The notes: generated from the sequence alone by a model not told the origin. Shown: positions 16,552 through 52,589, counted from the stretch's first letter. The stretch: 64,000 nt of DNA from an uncultured virus (IMG/VR IMGVR_UViG_2061766007_000271) (IMGVR_UViG_2061766007_000271); one strand, 5' to 3'. Translations and numbers: made by a program.

Positions 16552-16787
16552 AAAAAAGCCGAAAATTCTTACCTGCCGNNNNNNNNNNNNNNNNNNNNNN
16601 NNNNNNNNNNNNNNNNNNNNNNNNNNNNNNNNNNNNACCCTCTCCCCCCCTCCTACGGATAAAATAATAAAAGAGAGGGTTGAGTAAAAATAAAAAGGCG
16701 GTCTCGCAATCCGTCATGGAGTGGAAACAGCGACGAAACACAATCCATGATGGGCGAGACCGCCAATGGTTTTTTATTTCCCGATGG

Positions 16788-18002: not shown

Positions 18003-18374
18003 TTTGATTCACTCCTTTGATTTGTTAAACTGTTAATCGGATTTTCGTGTCACATCCATAATATACATCCGTTTGTCTAGAATGCAACAACGCAACGCAA
18101 CTTTTTCTAAAAAACGTATTTTTTAGTTTACTAAACTCCAAGCCACGCCACAGCCTTGGCCCCTGACCTTCCGCNNNNNNNNNNNNNNNNNNNNNNNNNN
18201 NNNNNNNNNNNNNNTTCAATATCTTTACCGATTGGTTCTTGTATTAGATATTGAATATCCATTTCATGCGAAGAGATAAAAGAAGAGGACAGGGGCACCA
18301 GCCCCTGTCCTGAGAATCATGCACGTCCGATTACACATCTGGGTGGATGACCATCCACCCCCCTGTCATTGTTC

Positions 18375-43529: not shown

Positions 43530-45416
43530 TAACTTAAAATCTACCAAAATCTACAACTGCTATAAATTCTGGATTAGATTCTTTACTTAATATGGTCTAT
43601 CTCAGACGCAAATCAAGTTGCCACGGAACTTTTCCAGCACTTCCAACGTCTTTTCTTTTGAATTGACCTTTGGAATATATGCACTGGAACCTTTAGAGTC
43701 CTTCTTGAGAAGCAAATCACGAAGCACTGCTTGTGAAACTCTGTTTCTGATATTTCTGGAAGCATTCAAATCTGCATTTGCTTTATAGCCACAGTCCACA
43801 CACTCGAAATGCTCCTGGTCTTTTCTGTTTTCCTTATCTATGCAACCACATTTAGGACAAGTTTGAGAAGTATAGTATGATTGAACCAGACTTACTGCGA
43901 TTCCATATTTCCTTGCTATATGTTCAAATTCATTTTTCAAATCGCCAAGATGTAGAATCCTCAATCTTCTATTGTAATTCAAGTCATTCTCATCCTTCGC
44001 AAAAGTGGAACCGAATTGATTATCTAAATCCTCAAAGACTGCATGATGATAATGATGAGCCTTCAATCGCTTGCAAAGACTGGCAATTTCTTCTTTTATT
44101 TTCGATTGAAGTTCTCTATTGAGATGGTCTATCTTATGCTGTTTTCTCTTTCCGATTTCATAACTTGAGTTTCTTTTCTTTAACTCATCTATTTTCTTTA
44201 ATTCCTTAGATAGTGTTTCCACCAGTTCCCTGTCAAAATCAATCTCATAGCCATTTGAACAAGTCATCAGGTTGTGCTTTGAATTGACATCTATACCAAC
44301 GATTCTATCTTTCACTTCTGGGAAATATCTTTCGTCCTCATAGGATAAAATCATTCTAACTTGATTATTCTCTTCCAGGCAAATTATATATGACGTATCG
44401 GTTCCATTAGTATATCTCTTCAATTCACCGTGAAAGTCCTTCGAGTATTTCATCGGAATCGTCATCTTCTTCCTATCCTTGAGATACCACGAGATGTTTG
44501 CGAAGGAATTGAGAATAGATTTCCTATTCTCATTTAACGAAACAATGTCTTCTGTCAATCTGCTTCTTCCCCTGAAACTCAATGACTGGAACTCAATAGA
44601 TTTTTGAGAATATCTTTCAATGATTCTGTTTCTTTTACTCATCGCAAGAGCGAAAAGCCTAGTGAATCCAAACTTGTAAATCGTATCTAGTACATCCGCA
44701 TAGAATTTCTCTTTTTCTTGATTAGTTTCATTGACGAACTTTTCAAAAAGATAATCTACAATTCCAAAATATCCATATCTAGCGAGATAAGTAAGAGTAA
44801 TAGAAAGTGGAGTATCATCATGCTTGATTATGATGCTTTTGAAATCTCCTGAATGATACTCTCTTCCATTCTTGGCTTTACCACTTCTCTTGTAGTAGTT
44901 GAAATGGTATTCACTGATGTGCTGGAATTTTAGTCTTCTCTTGACATTGTTGAATTTGTTTTGATATGCTGTATAAACATCATCACACAATTGCTTGGTG
45001 AAATGACTGCTTATCTCATCTTTGATATGTGGAAGCATTGTCTTCTGGAAGTCAATTTTCGACATCTCCAAATATCGGAACAAATCCTGATTAACAATTC
45101 CAGAAATCTTGTTTTTTGCATCACGAATAGATATAGCAAGAGCATGGATTTCCTGATACTTCTTGTCAGTCAATCCATCACTGTAAAAACTCCTGCTGTA
45201 TCTGCTCTTGACTTTCATTTCAAAAAAGAACCTCCAGATGAAAGTGATGACGGCACTATTCAAGAGGAGGTCTAAAAATTCAGTATTATAATGTTCAATT
45301 CAATAAAAGCCGTCATCAATTATCGAATCTATATTATTATACTTCATATAAACAAAAAAATCACATCAATTGTAAATTTAGTTAGAAAATTGTAGATTTT
45401 GGTAGATTTTTAGTTA
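43530..45416 (-). mobile_element. non-autonomous TnpB-only element, IS607-like ends
   Basis: 27-bp inverted ends matching at 26 of 27 positions (43530-43556 and 45390-45416), each with tandem AAAATCTAC; interrupts a gene; no transposase seen. Confidence 0.8.
43602..45218 (-). CDS. tnpB: TnpB/Cas12f-like RuvC nuclease (about 538 aa)
   Basis: RuvC-I IVGIDVN, RuvC-II VFEDL, YTSQTCPKCG...CVDCG zinc finger and RuvC-III NADLNASRNI. Confidence 0.9.
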   Translation of the reverse strand: MKVKSRYSRSFYSDGLTDKKYQEIHALAISIRDAKNKISGIVNQDLFRYLEMSKIDFQKTMLPHIKDEISSHFTKQLCDDVYTAYQNKFNNVKRRLKFQHISEYHFNYYKRSGKAKNGREYHSGDFKSIIIKHDDTPLSITLTYLARYGYFGIVDYLFEKFVNETNQEKEKFYADVLDTIYKFGFTRLFALAMSKRNRIIERYSQKSIEFQSLSFRGRSRLTEDIVSLNENRKSILNSFANISWYLKDRKKMTIPMKYSKDFHGELKRYTNGTDTSYIICLEENNQVRMILSYEDERYFPEVKDRIVGIDVNSKHNLMTCSNGYEIDFDRELVETLSKELKKIDELKKRNSSYEIGKRKQHKIDHLNRELQSKIKEEIASLCKRLKAHHYHHAVFEDLDNQFGSTFAKDENDLNYNRRLRILHLGDLKNEFEHIARKYGIAVSLVQSYYTSQTCPKCGCIDKENRKDQEHFECVDCGYKANADLNASRNIRNRVSQAVLRDLLLKKDSKGSSAYIPKVNSKEKTLEVLEKFRGNLICV

Positions 45417-48597: not shown

Positions 48598-49128
48598 GGT
48601 GTAGGCTCCTGTGATTGGTGGTTGGATTCGATGCTGACCTCATCTTCGGTCAACACTAATAATATACATCCAAAATCCACGAATGCAATAGAAAAATCAA
48701 AAAATTTTCATCCAGCATTAGCATACATATTGAATATTCATTGCATCAGGATGAAAAGACAAAAAAATGAGGTGGTTCTTTTCAGAACCACCTCTGCGTG
48801 TATTTCTAGAAGGCTATCATTCTAATCTTCTTTCCAATCATCATCATGCCATTGATGTTCTTTAAGCCATAGATTGTGTTCCAACGAACTCATTCTGACA
48901 ACTTGCGTTTCAGTTCTTGTATCGGTAACAGTGCCATCGGGATTGACGAAAATGCCGATTCTCGCCAGCCGTTCGGGATGTTTGAGATTGTATTCCCGAT
49001 AGTAGCCTTTGCGATGGCGGTCTTTCTGCTTTTCGCCTTTCGCCTTTTGTTTCAGCCACCGCTCATGCCAATAGCCTTTTCGATGGCGGTCGGTGGATTT
49101 CCTTGATTCTTCCATGATTGTTCTTTCC

Positions 49129-49593
49129 TTATGCAAACACGACTTTTTTCTTATTCTTGACTTTGGAGCAATCCAAGTTTTCCTTGTATTCGTTGCCGTC
49201 ATCCTGCGTCTTCAACCAATCGAACATGGTGTCAGCGGTTTCCTGCTTGAAAAACCAGCCGATTTCAAATTCGCAACAATCACTAATTTTGACCGCAATC
49301 CTGTACGGATGGTCTTCTTTCCACAATGAATCGAAATCCCTGTTCGACAATTCGTGGTCGGTATGGAATTCGTGTTCAACGACAGGAGCGGTGGCATGGA
49401 TGATTTTTGCACCGAATGTGTTTTCGGATTCATAGATGCGGAAGTCACCGCAACAAAAGCGACCTTGAAGTTTCTGCTTCCAATAGTCCATGACTTTGAT
49501 TGCGTCTTCCAACTTGGTGAAGCAACTGAAAGTATAGGTGTCGGGGAAAACGGAAGAGCCTGTGTTTCTGACAACGAAAAGATAATATTTCAT
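49129..49593 (-). CDS. hypothetical protein
   Basis: AAGGAG RBS before MKYYLF; own promoter. Confidence 0.7.
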   Translation of the reverse strand: MKYYLFVVRNTGSSVFPDTYTFSCFTKLEDAIKVMDYWKQKLQGRFCCGDFRIYESENTFGAKIIHATAPVVEHEFHTDHELSNRDFDSLWKEDHPYRIAVKISDCCEFEIGWFFKQETADTMFDWLKTQDDGNEYKENLDCSKVKNKKKVVFA

Positions 49594-49754
49594 GATTTTG
49601 CTCCTTTGATTATTCTTTGATTGCATTATTCGTTGTAATCATAATATACATCCAAAAAACACGAATGCAAGTCGGCAACACATACAATTTGCCATCATGG
49701 TTCGATGAAAATAGTATTGAATATTTAAATATTGAATGGGCAATCTTCATTCAT

Positions 49755-49983
49755 ATTTCAACTCACGCACTTATGTAAAAGTGTGTTTTAATCAATTTGC
49801 AAAAAGTTCACCGTGATTGTCATTTTAACTCGCGTTTCAATAACTGAAACGTAATTTGCTCGTAATCCTACTTTCATGCCTAGCCAGATTTCAACTCACG
49901 CGCCCCCGCAGGGGCGCGACTTTATTGTATATGTGTATATTAAATAATGTAACCAGTTTCAACTCACGCGCCCCGCAGGGGCG
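49755..49983 (-). CRISPR. type I-C-like CRISPR mini-array: 4 visible repeats, 3 spacers, cut by an N gap
   Basis: Repeats at 49755-49787, 49822-49854, 49888-49920 (ATTTCAACTCACGCGCCCCCGCAGGGGCGCGAC) and 49956-49983+; spacers of 34, 33 and 35 nt; adjacent to cas3. Confidence 0.85.
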
Positions 49984-50141
49984 NNNNNNNNNNAAAAACA
50001 GCCACATTTTTGAAGAAATCTTCATAAGTCGCGTATTGACAATATCCGCGAATCTTATGCCTAATGGTATGCCAACTGTCGGTTCGCGGATTTCATCAAC
50101 GCCTACAATATACACCCATTTTAACGGAATGCAACTAGACT

Positions 50142-52589
50142 TTACACAATCATGCAGGAATTTACATTATCAAGACTGATTCCGCTTCCTTTGACATAAA
50201 GCACATCGCCAGCGAAATTCCGTTCTTGAAGCACGTATAAGCCTAGCTTGCTTCCATTGCTCTCCAATTCCTCAACCATTCCGCTGTTGTAGAGCATTTC
50301 AGCCGTATTGCGGTTTACCTCCACAACGTACTGTTGCAACTTGCGCTGGATTTTCTTGTTAAATTTGTATCTAGCATCTCTAAGCAATTGGTCTATCTCA
50401 TGGTCTTTATTATTTTCATGGTACATGACCACGATTGGAAATCCGCGTTGCGCTTCAATCATGTGGAATGATTCGCCGTATGTCTTGTAATTGAAAAAAT
50501 GGAATGGTATGCGGGCTTTTTCGAGTCCATTGCCTGTCTTGTCGTACAAGGCATTTTTGTAGCCTTTGAAATTATCTTCCACTTTCTGCCCATAATGGAA
50601 GATTTCTTTCTTGGAGTACAAAATGTTCAAATCATGCTCACCAATGTTCGCTGGTAGCTGACCTGTCTTGACATCCAGCATGTCTTCCATGATTCTCTTC
50701 TTTTCAAAAGCGTATTCGTAGTTTTCAATCGGGTAGTCCGACATTTCAAAGACATAGACAAATCCAACATTCTTCTTTCCGTTTCGGTTGCACCGTCCGC
50801 CTGTCTGCTTGATAGAGTACCATGAATTCATTTCACGCAACGCGACATCGAAATCAAAGTCCACGCCAGCTTCGACAAGGCTGGTGGAAACAACCGTTAT
50901 CTTGTCCCCTTTTTTCAGACGGTCAGCGATTATCTTTATCATCCGTTTCCTGTCTTTCGGACACAAATCCTTTGACAGCATATACTTGTCATCAGAAGAC
51001 TTCGCCACCATGTCATAAAGCACCCTGCATTTCTTCCGTGTATTCGTCACACAAAGAAACGATTGTGTTTCATCCGAAATCATCCGAGCGATTTCAGCCG
51101 ATTTCTTCCTGCCGATGAACATGAATTCGTTTCTTTTGAAATCATCGAACAATTCATTGACATCATCGACCAGCATGACCGAGCCATTGTAGCCGTCAAC
51201 TGTCTTTCCTTGACCGATGTTGATTTTTCCGTCGAATGCAGGGAGCGTAGCCGTGGAGCGCACAATCGTGCAACCGAAATCCTTTACAAGCGCATTGAGC
51301 GCATTGGTGATGGGATAAATCTGCTCTATCGGCAACTGCTGTTCTTCGTCAATGATAATGACGCTGTTGGCAATGCTATGGATTTTGCGAGTGTTTTTCG
51401 CTTTCCATTGCAACAACGATTCAAAGAACTGAACTGTTGTGGTTACGATGATGGGGAGATTCCAGTTCTCGACAATCAACGCCATGCGTTCTTCAAGTTC
51501 ATTCAGATTACTGCGAAATCCCTCTTTTCCGTCTTTTTCAAGCACGTCGAAATCGCATTGGTGTTCGATTACGTTTTCATCCGTGAAAATTTCAGTATAA
51601 GTCGTTGCGGTCTGGTCAACAACCGTAGTCAACGGAGCAAGGACAATCACCCTGTCCATCTTGTGAAAATCAGCGTGTTTCAAAGCAAAGTACATGCCTG
51701 TAATCGTCTTTCCCGCGCCTGTGGGAAGGACAAGATTGTAGATTCCCTTTTTGTCCGTAGCATGACCAGCGACCATGTTTCTCACATTCGTCCTTTTGAC
51801 ATTGACAGGTGACTTCGCATCGGGTCTTGAATCAATCTTGTCATGGATGTATTGCTCCATCATGCCTAAAAGCTCATGAATGCTTTTGAATCCACCTCTT
51901 TCCTCCTGCTTTTTAAGTCCATCCGTACCATAGAGTTCAGCGTCAAGACGGTCTGTGTCCACAAGACAGGAGTAAATCATCCTGATGAAGAATTCGCCTG
52001 TGCCTTTTATGCTTGCATTATTCAACTTCGCACATTCTTTCTTCAATCCATCAATGACATCCGTTTCAAACACCTTGTCGAACATGCTGTCATCAATCGT
52101 GGTCAGGTCAAAACGTGTACGAATTAGAATGTCCTGCTTTGTATCAGCAAAGGATGCCTTTCCATTGTCAATGAAAACCTTGTCTATTTCATGAATTATG
52201 TCAGTTCCATTGTTGACGTTCACGACATCATGCAAGCCATTGTGATGCGAAACGATGCACTGCGCCATGAGTTCAGAGATTATCATCGCCAATCCTCTTT
52301 CGGATGGCATGGATTTTCCAAGTCTCCACGCAAGGTACACCGCACTTTCAAGGGCATGAGACATGACCGCTGGTTTCGTACCTGTCATTCCGTTCATGTT
52401 GTATGCGATTTTTGCATTGATGTACGTCTGCCATCTATCGGAATCCTTGTATGCATCATGGCACATCCCGACAATCTTTCCGAAATTCGGCATGCCGAAT
52501 TTGGCGCACATGGATTCGCATTCCCTCGACACATTTTCCAAATGCTGTTGCACGGTTTCATTAGGTCTTGCAATCTTCGTCATATTCAA
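50142..52589 (-). CDS. cas3: CRISPR-associated HD nuclease/SF2 helicase Cas3 (I-C-like)
   Basis: HLENV, HDAYK, SHH and SCLVDTDRLD (HD domain); LPTGAGKT, IIIDEEQ, STAT, STSLVEAGVDFDF and QTGGRCNRNG (helicase). Confidence 0.92.
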   Translation of the reverse strand: MNMTKIARPNETVQQHLENVSRECESMCAKFGMPNFGKIVGMCHDAYKDSDRWQTYINAKIAYNMNGMTGTKPAVMSHALESAVYLAWRLGKSMPSERGLAMIISELMAQCIVSHHNGLHDVVNVNNGTDIIHEIDKVFIDNGKASFADTKQDILIRTRFDLTTIDDSMFDKVFETDVIDGLKKECAKLNNASIKGTGEFFIRMIYSCLVDTDRLDAELYGTDGLKKQEERGGFKSIHELLGMMEQYIHDKIDSRPDAKSPVNVKRTNVRNMVAGHATDKKGIYNLVLPTGAGKTITGMYFALKHADFHKMDRVIVLAPLTTVVDQTATTYTEIFTDENVIEHQCDFDVLEKDGKEGFRSNLNELEERMALIVENWNLPIIVTTTVQFFESLLQWKAKNTRKIHSIANSVIIIDEEQQLPIEQIYPITNALNALVKDFGCTIVRSTATLPAFDGKINIGQGKTVDGYNGSVMLVDDVNELFDDFKRNEFMFIGRKKSAEIARMISDETQSFLCVTNTRKKCRVLYDMVAKSSDDKYMLSKDLCPKDRKRMIKIIADRLKKGDKITVVSTSLVEAGVDFDFDVALREMNSWYSIKQTGGRCNRNGKKNVGFVYVFEMSDYPIENYEYAFEKKRIMEDMLDVKTGQLPANIGEHDLNILYSKKEIFHYGQKVEDNFKGYKNALYDKTGNGLEKARIPFHFFNYKTYGESFHMIEAQRGFPIVVMYHENNKDHEIDQLLRDARYKFNKKIQRKLQQYVVEVNRNTAEMLYNSGMVEELESNGSKLGLYVLQERNFAGDVLYVKGSGISLDNVNSCMIV

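Follow-up and report, generated by a model that had tools for sequence, protein, structure and literature searches.

Divergent but paired type I-C pseudo-repeats at the leader-distal end of a cas3-linked phage array: candidates for two fixed guides

A degenerate terminal repeat, at the leader-distal end, is a known feature of CRISPR arrays. In bacteria, CreR and CreA are degenerate mini-CRISPRs that regulate cas (CRISPR-associated) genes (10.1101/2023.03.10.532045). In viruses, the Cracr preprint counts 219 candidates, including 9 two-spacer arrays aimed at type I-C loci, some of them parts of larger arrays (10.1101/2024.10.29.618823), and Racrs are RNA anti-CRISPRs formed by solitary repeat units, among which the type I-C RacrIC1 was tested (PMC10651486). 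The arrays of huge phages are compact, lack adaptation genes and often lack effector genes, and reliance on the Cas proteins of the host has been proposed for them (Al-Shayeb et al. 2020, PMC7162821). I report here on a short type I-C array carried by a 64,000-nucleotide (nt) stretch of DNA from an uncultured virus (IMG/VR IMGVR_UViG_2061766007_000271), the whole of which is hereafter called the window. The first-pass annotation of this DNA had noticed that the two distal repeats of the array, D1 and D2, keep the repeat handle and a regular period of 66-68 nt while their stems are replaced by other self-complementary sequences, and had seen in this a sign of selection for a structure that Cas5d can process. 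The sequences and coordinates that it gave are correct, the position of the D2 hairpin included. The start-to-start periods measure 67, 66 and 68 nt, in register with the canonical repeats, and the spacers 34, 33 and 35 nt, which is the spacing of type I-C arrays (about 65-68 nt, with spacers of 33-36 nt). The reading that I favour, and to which I give an even chance, is that D1 and D2 are divergent pseudo-repeats of type I-C that may still be processed and would then yield two fixed guides.

The array is read on the minus strand, with its leader at the right and with D2 and D1 as its two leader-distal units, because of the orientation of the I-C repeat, of a promoter motif that is confined to the minus strand, and of the adjoining upstream cas3. 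From the leader side, the units considered below are the canonical repeat R1, spacer S2, D2, spacer S1 and D1 (Table 1). On the transcribed strand, R1 consists of GU, an 8-base-pair (bp) stem, a 4-nt loop and an 11-nt tail, the last being the 3′ overhang that forms the 5′ handle of the CRISPR RNA (crRNA; consensus UGAGUUGAAAU, alignment A3). The four type I-C repeats studied in PMC8524198 share one layout, in which the stem measures 7 nt, the loop 5 nt, and the overhangs 2 nt (5′) and 11 nt (3′). D2 displays the same 7/5/11 layout: seven Watson-Crick pairs (CGUUUCA/UGAAACG), a 5-nt loop and an 11-nt tail, CGAGUUAAAAU, which is identical to the R1 handle at 9 of 11 positions, the first base being changed from U to C and one G to A. 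D1 nearly has this layout, with a C-G pair, an A.C mismatch and five further pairs (six of seven in all), a 6-nt loop, and the tail UGAGUUGAAAU, which is the array's own handle at all 11 positions. A stem of 7-8 bp with a loop of 4-5 nt, ending directly 5′ of the cut site, is thus present in D2 and in part in D1. The handle is therefore kept in both distal repeats, as had been claimed. Full compensation, also claimed, holds for D2; it fails for D1 on the transcribed strand, since a G-T (G-U) pair takes the place of the mismatch only when the plus strand is read. Both hairpins stop exactly 11 nt from the end of the repeat, the register of the canonical repeat, which strengthens the observation. 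In both units the C-G/G-C base of the stem is retained and the upper stem, the loop and the 5′ overhang are changed, the new stems being A/T-rich. As an observation apart, the two arms of the D2 hairpin spell out TGAAAC, the I-C handle motif, and its complement, which gives the transcribed strand two handle-like motifs in tandem.

Two backgrounds were used to judge the pairing. Of all 126,926 22-mers in the window, 0.24% form a 3′-anchored hairpin with at least 7 perfect pairs, and 1.3% one with at least 6 pairs and one mismatch. As a null model of decay, the canonical repeat was mutated with the observed number and spectrum of changes, in 200,000 trials for each unit. D2 differs from the canonical repeat at 16 of 32 positions, many of them by transversion, with 14 changes in the first 21 positions and 2 in the handle; pairing as good as that observed survived in 0.03-0.11% of the trials (P = 0.0003-0.001). 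D1 differs at 13 of 33 positions, and all 13 changes fall within the first 19, none in the last 14 (P = 4.7e-5). The corresponding probability for D2, that at most 3 of its 16 changes fall in the last 11 positions, is 0.068. An ordinary terminal repeat would decay regardless of handle or pairing; here, the changes keep away from the handle, and the pairing survives. The argument against neutral decay rests mainly on the stem of D2 and the handle of D1. The B. halodurans enzyme is reported to recognize the three bases after the cut and the base of the stem, not the loop or the 5′ overhang, and the S. mutans enzyme tolerates variation around the cut (PMC8524198). The parts retained in D1 and D2, handle and stem base, are thus those that Cas5c reportedly reads, which supports the view that these units are not products of ordinary trailer decay.

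A relative, X3, provides a second line of evidence. Over positions 49450-49913, one 676-nt contig of it (depth 6) shows 3 gap positions and 12 substitutions. The stretch 49715-49885, which holds the end of the trailer, D1, S1, D2 and S2, is free of substitutions, while 9-10 of the 12 fall within the 128 intergenic nt that precede D1 (a difference of about 7%). At the mean rate of the contig, the 133-nt block would escape substitution with a probability of 0.03, and at that of the neighbouring intergenic DNA with one of 6e-5. Past R1, X3 has a different spacer, and another piece of X3 consists of R1, a different 34-nt spacer and R1. The constancy of the block is suggestive of selection on the whole of it or of its recent exchange, as judged from this one contig. 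Coverage in another run, X4, does not reach the array. Among the roles proposed by the first-pass annotation, that of fixed guides draws some support from this unsubstituted block and is weakened by a change at its edge that is described below.

The family and strand assignments agree with one another. When reverse-complemented, R1 reads as a typical type I-C repeat, with a G/C stem followed by GUGAGUUGAAAU (the family-type repeat ends GCGTGAGTTGAAAT). It was found at 8 loci in 185,579 species genomes, and 7 of the 8 are arrays of near-identical repeats, all in the same orientation, in Oscillospiraceae, Pseudoflavonifractor, Vandammella and others. The promoter motif, 30 nt long (TTGCATTC, about 8 variable bases, TGGATGTATATTAT), is present in 27 copies in the window, all on the minus strand, at sites that span 9390 to 61663 (e.g. 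48659-48688, 49641-49670 and 50105-50134). Within 60-nt flanks, a ribosome-binding site and a start codon follow most copies; the copy at 50134-50105 precedes the array leader instead, so that leader and promoter (50134-49994, minus) stand at one end of the array and D2 and D1 come last. Contigs of other runs pile up on this motif to a depth of up to 188, which indicates that it is repeated across related phages. The minus strand is also where a covariance model of 18 independent I-C repeats found its matches. R1 scored 42.5 bits (E = 3e-9) and D1 19.1 bits over its full length (E = 0.0076 for the whole window), beside which a sequence-only model gave 14.7 bits for the 3′ half. D2 gave no full-length alignment even when searched alone; the training stems are all G/C-rich, which handicaps A/T-rich stems such as that of D2. 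Within the D2 stem, the model picks out AUUGAAAC. Rfam returned no family match in 49300-50300.

If D1 and D2 are processable pseudo-repeats, the following course of events can be proposed. The phage promoter right after the phage cas3 would drive a minus-strand transcript of the array. Cas5c/Cas5d, supplied by the host or by phage DNA beyond the window, would cleave the hairpin of each unit at its 3′ base. This would release an S2 guide with the canonical handle and the D2 hairpin, and an S1 guide with the D2 handle and the D1 hairpin, both of which might then be loaded into Cascade. The upper stem, loop and 5′ overhang may have drifted toward A/T under selection for pairing only, or may go back to repeat versions that were older or foreign. 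Handle and stem base would stay fixed, and the leader-side units would turn over while the D1-S1-D2-S2 block stays.

A rather unlikely alternative is that D1 and D2 are fossils of older or foreign repeat versions, left at the trailer with no present function. New repeats are copied from the leader end, so that old versions would remain at the trailer, and pairing would have been inherited with the help of a GC-to-AT bias. Several observations weigh against processable pseudo-repeats and some of them fit such fossils. Eleven of the 13 changes in D1 are GC-to-AT transitions (G-to-A or C-to-T). Under this spectrum a C-G pair becomes U-A when both sides are hit, so that the pairing of D1 is less surprising: D1-grade pairing survives in 2.7% of the trials (0.8% under a uniform spectrum), which is only mildly unlikely. 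The earlier argument that random decay would break the pairing, and that selection is at work, thus carries for the D2 stem and for the avoidance of handle and stem base, and carries less far for D1 (P 0.008-0.027). The minus-strand hairpins are weak, with folding energies of -6.0 kcal/mol for D1 and -6.8 for D2, to be compared with -19.4 for R1, and shuffled sequences fold as well in 13 of 200 (D1) and 12 of 200 (D2) cases. The A.C mismatch of D1 is on the strand that is transcribed, and plus-strand RNA of either unit gives the better fold. D2 is altered at one handle G and at the first handle base, where it has C for U, and has no full-length I-C model score; this first base is reported to matter for the B. 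halodurans enzyme (PMC8524198), and it qualifies the claim of a Cas5d-processable structure, to which the retention of the parts read by Cas5c otherwise lends weight. No cas5, cas7 or cas8c was found among the window's 89 reading frames, so that Cas5d would need to come from the host or from phage DNA beyond the window. In X3, two nucleotides are deleted where S2 meets R1, at the seed end of S2. In a further relative, X5, a contig 94% identical over 49450-49706 diverges beyond 49706 and none of it matched D2 or R1; its first 30 diverging letters are similar to the D1 stem-loop, with its stem broken and its handle missing. X5 seems, from this contig, to be without the D1-D2 block or to hold it in decayed form, so that conservation among related phages, which the first-pass annotation had named as a check, is seen in X3 and seemingly not in X5. 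No target was found for S1 or S2 in any of the sequence sets searched, as detailed below, and older terminal repeats with compensated changes occur in ordinary bacterial arrays (L032, L071). Three things speak against fossils all the same: D2 has seven perfect pairs, two of them transversion pairs, although 14 of its first 21 positions are changed; the handle of D1 is intact; and the X3 block is free of substitutions vs about 7% difference in the flanking intergenic DNA.

Ordinary terminal repeats resemble D1 and D2 in being leader-distal and older than the homogeneous leader-side repeats (L047, L049, L051 and L032). In the bacterial I-C arrays L047, L049 and L051, the terminal repeats decay in the handle and/or lose pairing; D1 and D2 differ from these in that two successive units, with 13/33 and 16/32 changes, keep handle, register and pairing. 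Rewritten yet paired stems are not rare in I-C arrays. One case is a metagenome contig with an I-C type cas3 (L030, 10987-12690). Of the 22 units in its array (period 71-79 nt, with some larger gaps), at least 8 have stems that differ from one another yet pair fully (-11.6 to -18.4 kcal/mol), above a CACCGG/CCGGTG base and a handle that stay constant. At one end of its array, L022 has two units with rewritten paired stems, and the last repeat of L032 has compensated changes. In L050 (1061-3420, a Pseudoflavonifractor sp. scaffold), nearly every one of about 37 repeat units is several substitutions away from its neighbours, many of the changes being compensated or G-U; this array is unusually heterogeneous for bacteria. 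The heterogeneous arrays of L030, L022 and L050 are like D1 and D2 in that stems vary within the array while pairing, the stem base and the handle are retained, and unlike them in lying on bacterial or unassigned metagenome contigs and in having G/C-rich stems. I know of no paper on heterogeneous I-C arrays with covarying stems, a point on which no literature search was made.

An alternative that I hold to be improbable is that these are regulatory RNAs of the Cracr type: S1, S2 or the sequence after D1 would pair in part with the promoter of a host I-C cas gene or of a CRISPR-guarding toxin, which Cascade would then repress. The first-pass annotation had likewise proposed a regulatory crRNA-like role, which has a known model in Cracr and CreR and lacks a target in the sets searched. 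D1-S1-D2-S2 resembles Cracr in being a phage-borne, multiplexed series of pseudo-repeat/spacer units that would depend on host Cas proteins, and I-C two-spacer arrays, some of them within larger arrays, figure in that preprint (10.1101/2024.10.29.618823). Like Cracr and CreR elements, D1 and D2 are pseudo-repeats that keep the cognate handle and a hairpin. The closest parallels come from a search of 401 Clostridia genomes with a D1-like pattern, which matched 7. In two of them (G178 and G358; loci L057 and L058, 1497-1582), a pseudo-repeat, a 21-nt spacer and a second repeat lie just upstream of cas3. The pseudo-repeat is solitary, with a short A/T-rich stem and the same handle as D1, and the spacer agrees, at 16 of its first 17 positions, with the opposite strand where the ribosome-binding site of cas3 lies, next to CTC; I read the element as a putative CreR-type autoregulator. 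CreR/CreA and this element resemble D1 in keeping handle and hairpin with a stem unlike that of the cognate repeat (10.1101/2023.03.10.532045), and D1 is identical to the L057 pseudo-repeat at 25 of 33 positions vs 20 of 33 for R1. A rewritten stem with a kept handle recurs in a phage single-spacer mini-array with a 34-nt spacer (L064, 700-800 of an IMG/VR contig, minus), where the first stem is CACCTC/GAGGTG and the second CACGCCTC/GAGGCGTG and the 15-nt 3′ end is common to both repeats. This locus is one of 43 returned by a scan of IMG/VR for handle-gap-handle patterns, about 12 of which are real I-C type arrays. In 25 metagenome I-C loci, no CreR-like pseudo-repeat was found upstream of cas3 by the handle pattern, only the L022 array and weak matches.

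The search for targets gave no support to regulation of this kind. It covered the window, 400,103 bases of fetched loci (39 of them with I-C type cas3), IMG/VR, INPHARED, 401 genomes of a single order, and both genomes that carry the CreR-like element. No target was found in these sets for S1, S2 or the trailer after D1; the host was not identified, so that the search has little power. In the window, S1 and S2 matched only 8-11 nt seeds, at chance level; in IMG/VR, protospacers for them were found at 0 loci. The best matches in the fetched loci were two 11-nt prefixes without a TTC motif, where about 0.2 exact 11-mers are expected per spacer. One S1 match, at L022:3400, lies just before a ribosome-binding site inside an I-C operon and is judged to be chance at this expectation. 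The best S1 match in the 401 genomes (27 of 32, in L103) has an E of 1e-4 per genome, or about 0.04 over the 401, is not near cas genes and was likewise rejected. The two genomes with the CreR-like element held no protospacer for any part of the stretch, only chance matches of 16-21 nt and their own arrays. As to the promoter matches suggested by the first-pass annotation, no partial match of S1, S2 or the trailer to cas promoters was found in 25 I-C loci, the window and 403 genomes, the best being at chance and without TTC; with PAM (protospacer-adjacent motif)-proximal matches of at least 9 nt to cas or toxin promoters as the measure, none stood above chance in the window, the fetched loci and the 401 + 2 genomes. 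Cracrs, in contrast, were found through the likeness of their spacers to those of host CreR/CreA and through PAM-proximal matches of at least 9 nt to cas or toxin promoters (10.1101/2024.10.29.618823), and a CreR lies upstream of the cas promoter that it represses (10.1101/2023.03.10.532045), whereas the phage units lie at the trailer of an array. S1 and S2 are full-length (34 and 33 nt) vs the 21-nt CreR-like spacer. Unlike Cracrs as the preprint presents them, the phage units are joined to canonical repeats and stand beside a phage cas3, which suggests interference rather than silencing.

Two further explanations are very improbable. Hairpin-plus-handle units might act as Racr-like decoys that trap Cas5c and Cas7 in dead-end complexes, the spacers being irrelevant; repeat mimics do work against I-C (RacrIC1, PMC10651486) and D1 and D2 share with Racrs the mimicry of a repeat hairpin, but Racrs are solitary units outside arrays whereas D1 and D2, at intervals of 66-67 nt, share the register of the canonical repeats and have full-length spacers, for which reason the decoy is the role proposed by the first-pass annotation that fits least, and blocking Cascade would presumably hurt a phage with its own I-C cas3 and canonical guides. 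It is equally hard to credit that the hairpins serve as a plus-strand small RNA, or as plus-strand terminators for transcription of the leftward neighbours, with a secondary likeness to CRISPR: the plus-strand folds are better (D1 -8.6, D2 -8.5 kcal/mol; 1 and 0 of 200 shuffles as good) thanks to G-U pairs in place of A.C mismatches, 49689-49717 holds a weak promoter-like site on that strand, and R1 with TTTATTGT after it resembles a plus-strand terminator, but that promoter agrees with 9 of 12 consensus positions (7 such sites vs 2.6 expected in the region), all 27 strong promoter motif copies and nearly all genes are on the minus strand, and so are the repeat family, cas3 and the covariance-model matches.

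Returning to D1 and D2 as processable pseudo-repeats, the pattern itself is already known from bacterial arrays, CreR elements and viral mini-arrays (Cracr, Racr and the compact arrays of huge phages). The window is like the last of these in its huge-phage-like genome, its short array, the lack of adaptation genes nearby and the missing effector genes; the I-C variant described in that study has a helicase instead of Cas3 (PMC7162821), whereas the window encodes a full I-C class Cas3. Less usual is the combination of a phage-borne cas3 beside the array with Cascade genes that were not found in the window. As it stands, the locus is one further example of a published theme, interesting and not very surprising to a specialist. 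If S1 and S2 are processed, the phage would have two hard-wired guides beside an evolving array and its own Cas3, with a Cascade apparently borrowed from the host, and would be a clear natural case of CRISPR labour divided between phage and host. The needs of Cas5c would in that case come down to the 11-nt handle, two basal pairs and any 7-bp stem, which would be useful for the design of non-repetitive I-C arrays. A bolder version, which I regard as doubtful, is that the array has two parts, a canonical leader side that turns over and a fixed two-guide trailer module, whose guides would load host Cascade to silence host CRISPR or defence promoters or would direct the phage Cas3, D1 deriving from a host CreR-type pseudo-repeat. 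Adaptive and hard-wired guides would then be combined in one transcript.

Table 1. Features of the array region, in window coordinates.
Feature	Position	Strand	Remarks
D1, leader-distal pseudo-repeat	49755-49787	minus	starts ATTTCAACTCACGC; last 14 nt identical to canonical repeat R1
S1, 34-nt spacer between D2 and D1	49788-49821	minus	identical in relative X3; no protospacer found in the sets searched
D2, pseudo-repeat	49822-49854	minus	starts ATTTTAACTCGCG; hairpin CGTTTCA-ATAAC-TGAAACG at 49833-49851
S2, 33-nt spacer between R1 and D2	49855-49887	minus	no protospacer found in the sets searched; 2-nt deletion at R1 junction in X3
R1, canonical type I-C repeat	49888-49920	minus	8-bp G/C stem, 4-nt loop, 11-nt handle
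S3, 35-nt A/T-rich spacer	49921-49955	minus	different spacer at this place in X3
Second canonical repeat, interrupted by 10 N	49956-49993	minus	repeat letters 49956-49983, N run 49984-49993
Leader with phage promoter motif	49994-50134	minus	motif copy 50134-50105, TTGCATTC..GGGTGTATATTGT, about 110 nt ahead of first repeat
Trailer between D1 and next promoter motif (49670-49641)	49689-49754	minus	14-nt A/T palindrome; 49715-49754 unchanged in X3
cas3, type I-C class, 815 amino acids, HD and helicase parts	50142-52589	minus	PADLOC and Pfam matches

The array sits between a 165-amino-acid (aa) reading frame (49626-49129, minus) and the 815-aa gene (52589-50142, minus). The product of the latter matched the PADLOC Cas3c model with E = 2.4e-155, and its residues 14-217 matched a Cas3-HD model. 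With proteins named Cas3 at their source in Clostridia it shares 28-35% identity over 70-99% of its length. Eight closer relatives (P0001-P0008) show 41-93% identity, one of them on a 655,914-base contig. In the alignment of this phage clade (9 sequences), D414 E415 E416 Q417 (DEEQ), H44 D45 and PTGxGKT are invariant; helicase motif II is usually DExH, and the DEEQ columns are a candidate for it. A metagenome scan with Cas3 found at least 39 loci, with 24-35% identity among the matches listed. Two scans of viral contigs for Cas3 relatives gave none and one distant locus, respectively, and INPHARED held no DNA match to the stretch and 5 distant Cas3 matches only. Like the Cascade genes, cas1, cas2 and cas4 were not found among the 89 reading frames. 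In IMG/VR, patterns specific for D1 and for D2 matched 0 loci each, and an 18-nt piece of the canonical repeat matched 5 (4 related phages and 1 other), about the chance expectation and with no arrays.

A second nuclease-like gene lies at 43602-45263 (minus) and encodes a 553-aa protein with a Cas12f1-like TNB domain (PADLOC Cas12f, E = 6.5e-27; PHROG transposase families). The gene, 4.5 kb away from the array and without repeats of its own kind nearby, is probably a TnpB-type element. As a user of the array it was ruled out, the repeats being of the I-C family and adjoining cas3. In the trailer, 49716-49745 contains the 14-nt A/T palindrome AATATTTAAATATT; a 23/24 match of this stretch in an unrelated genome (L104) was judged to be chance.

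The window is apparently part of a huge phage. Its long reading frames are almost all on the minus strand and mostly match no family; a few PHROG families of unknown function are represented, as are CobT-like and AAA proteins. Its DNA is almost complete in one bovine gut metagenome sample and occurs in part in runs of 11 other studies, with no RNA run among them. It holds 13 N runs of 10-58 bases (e.g. 16579-16636 and 18175-18214), of which at least the one at 49984-49993 masks real array sequence: a contig of run X1, from the likely source sample, carries 77 letters there instead of 10 N, a length that would fit one extra spacer-repeat unit.

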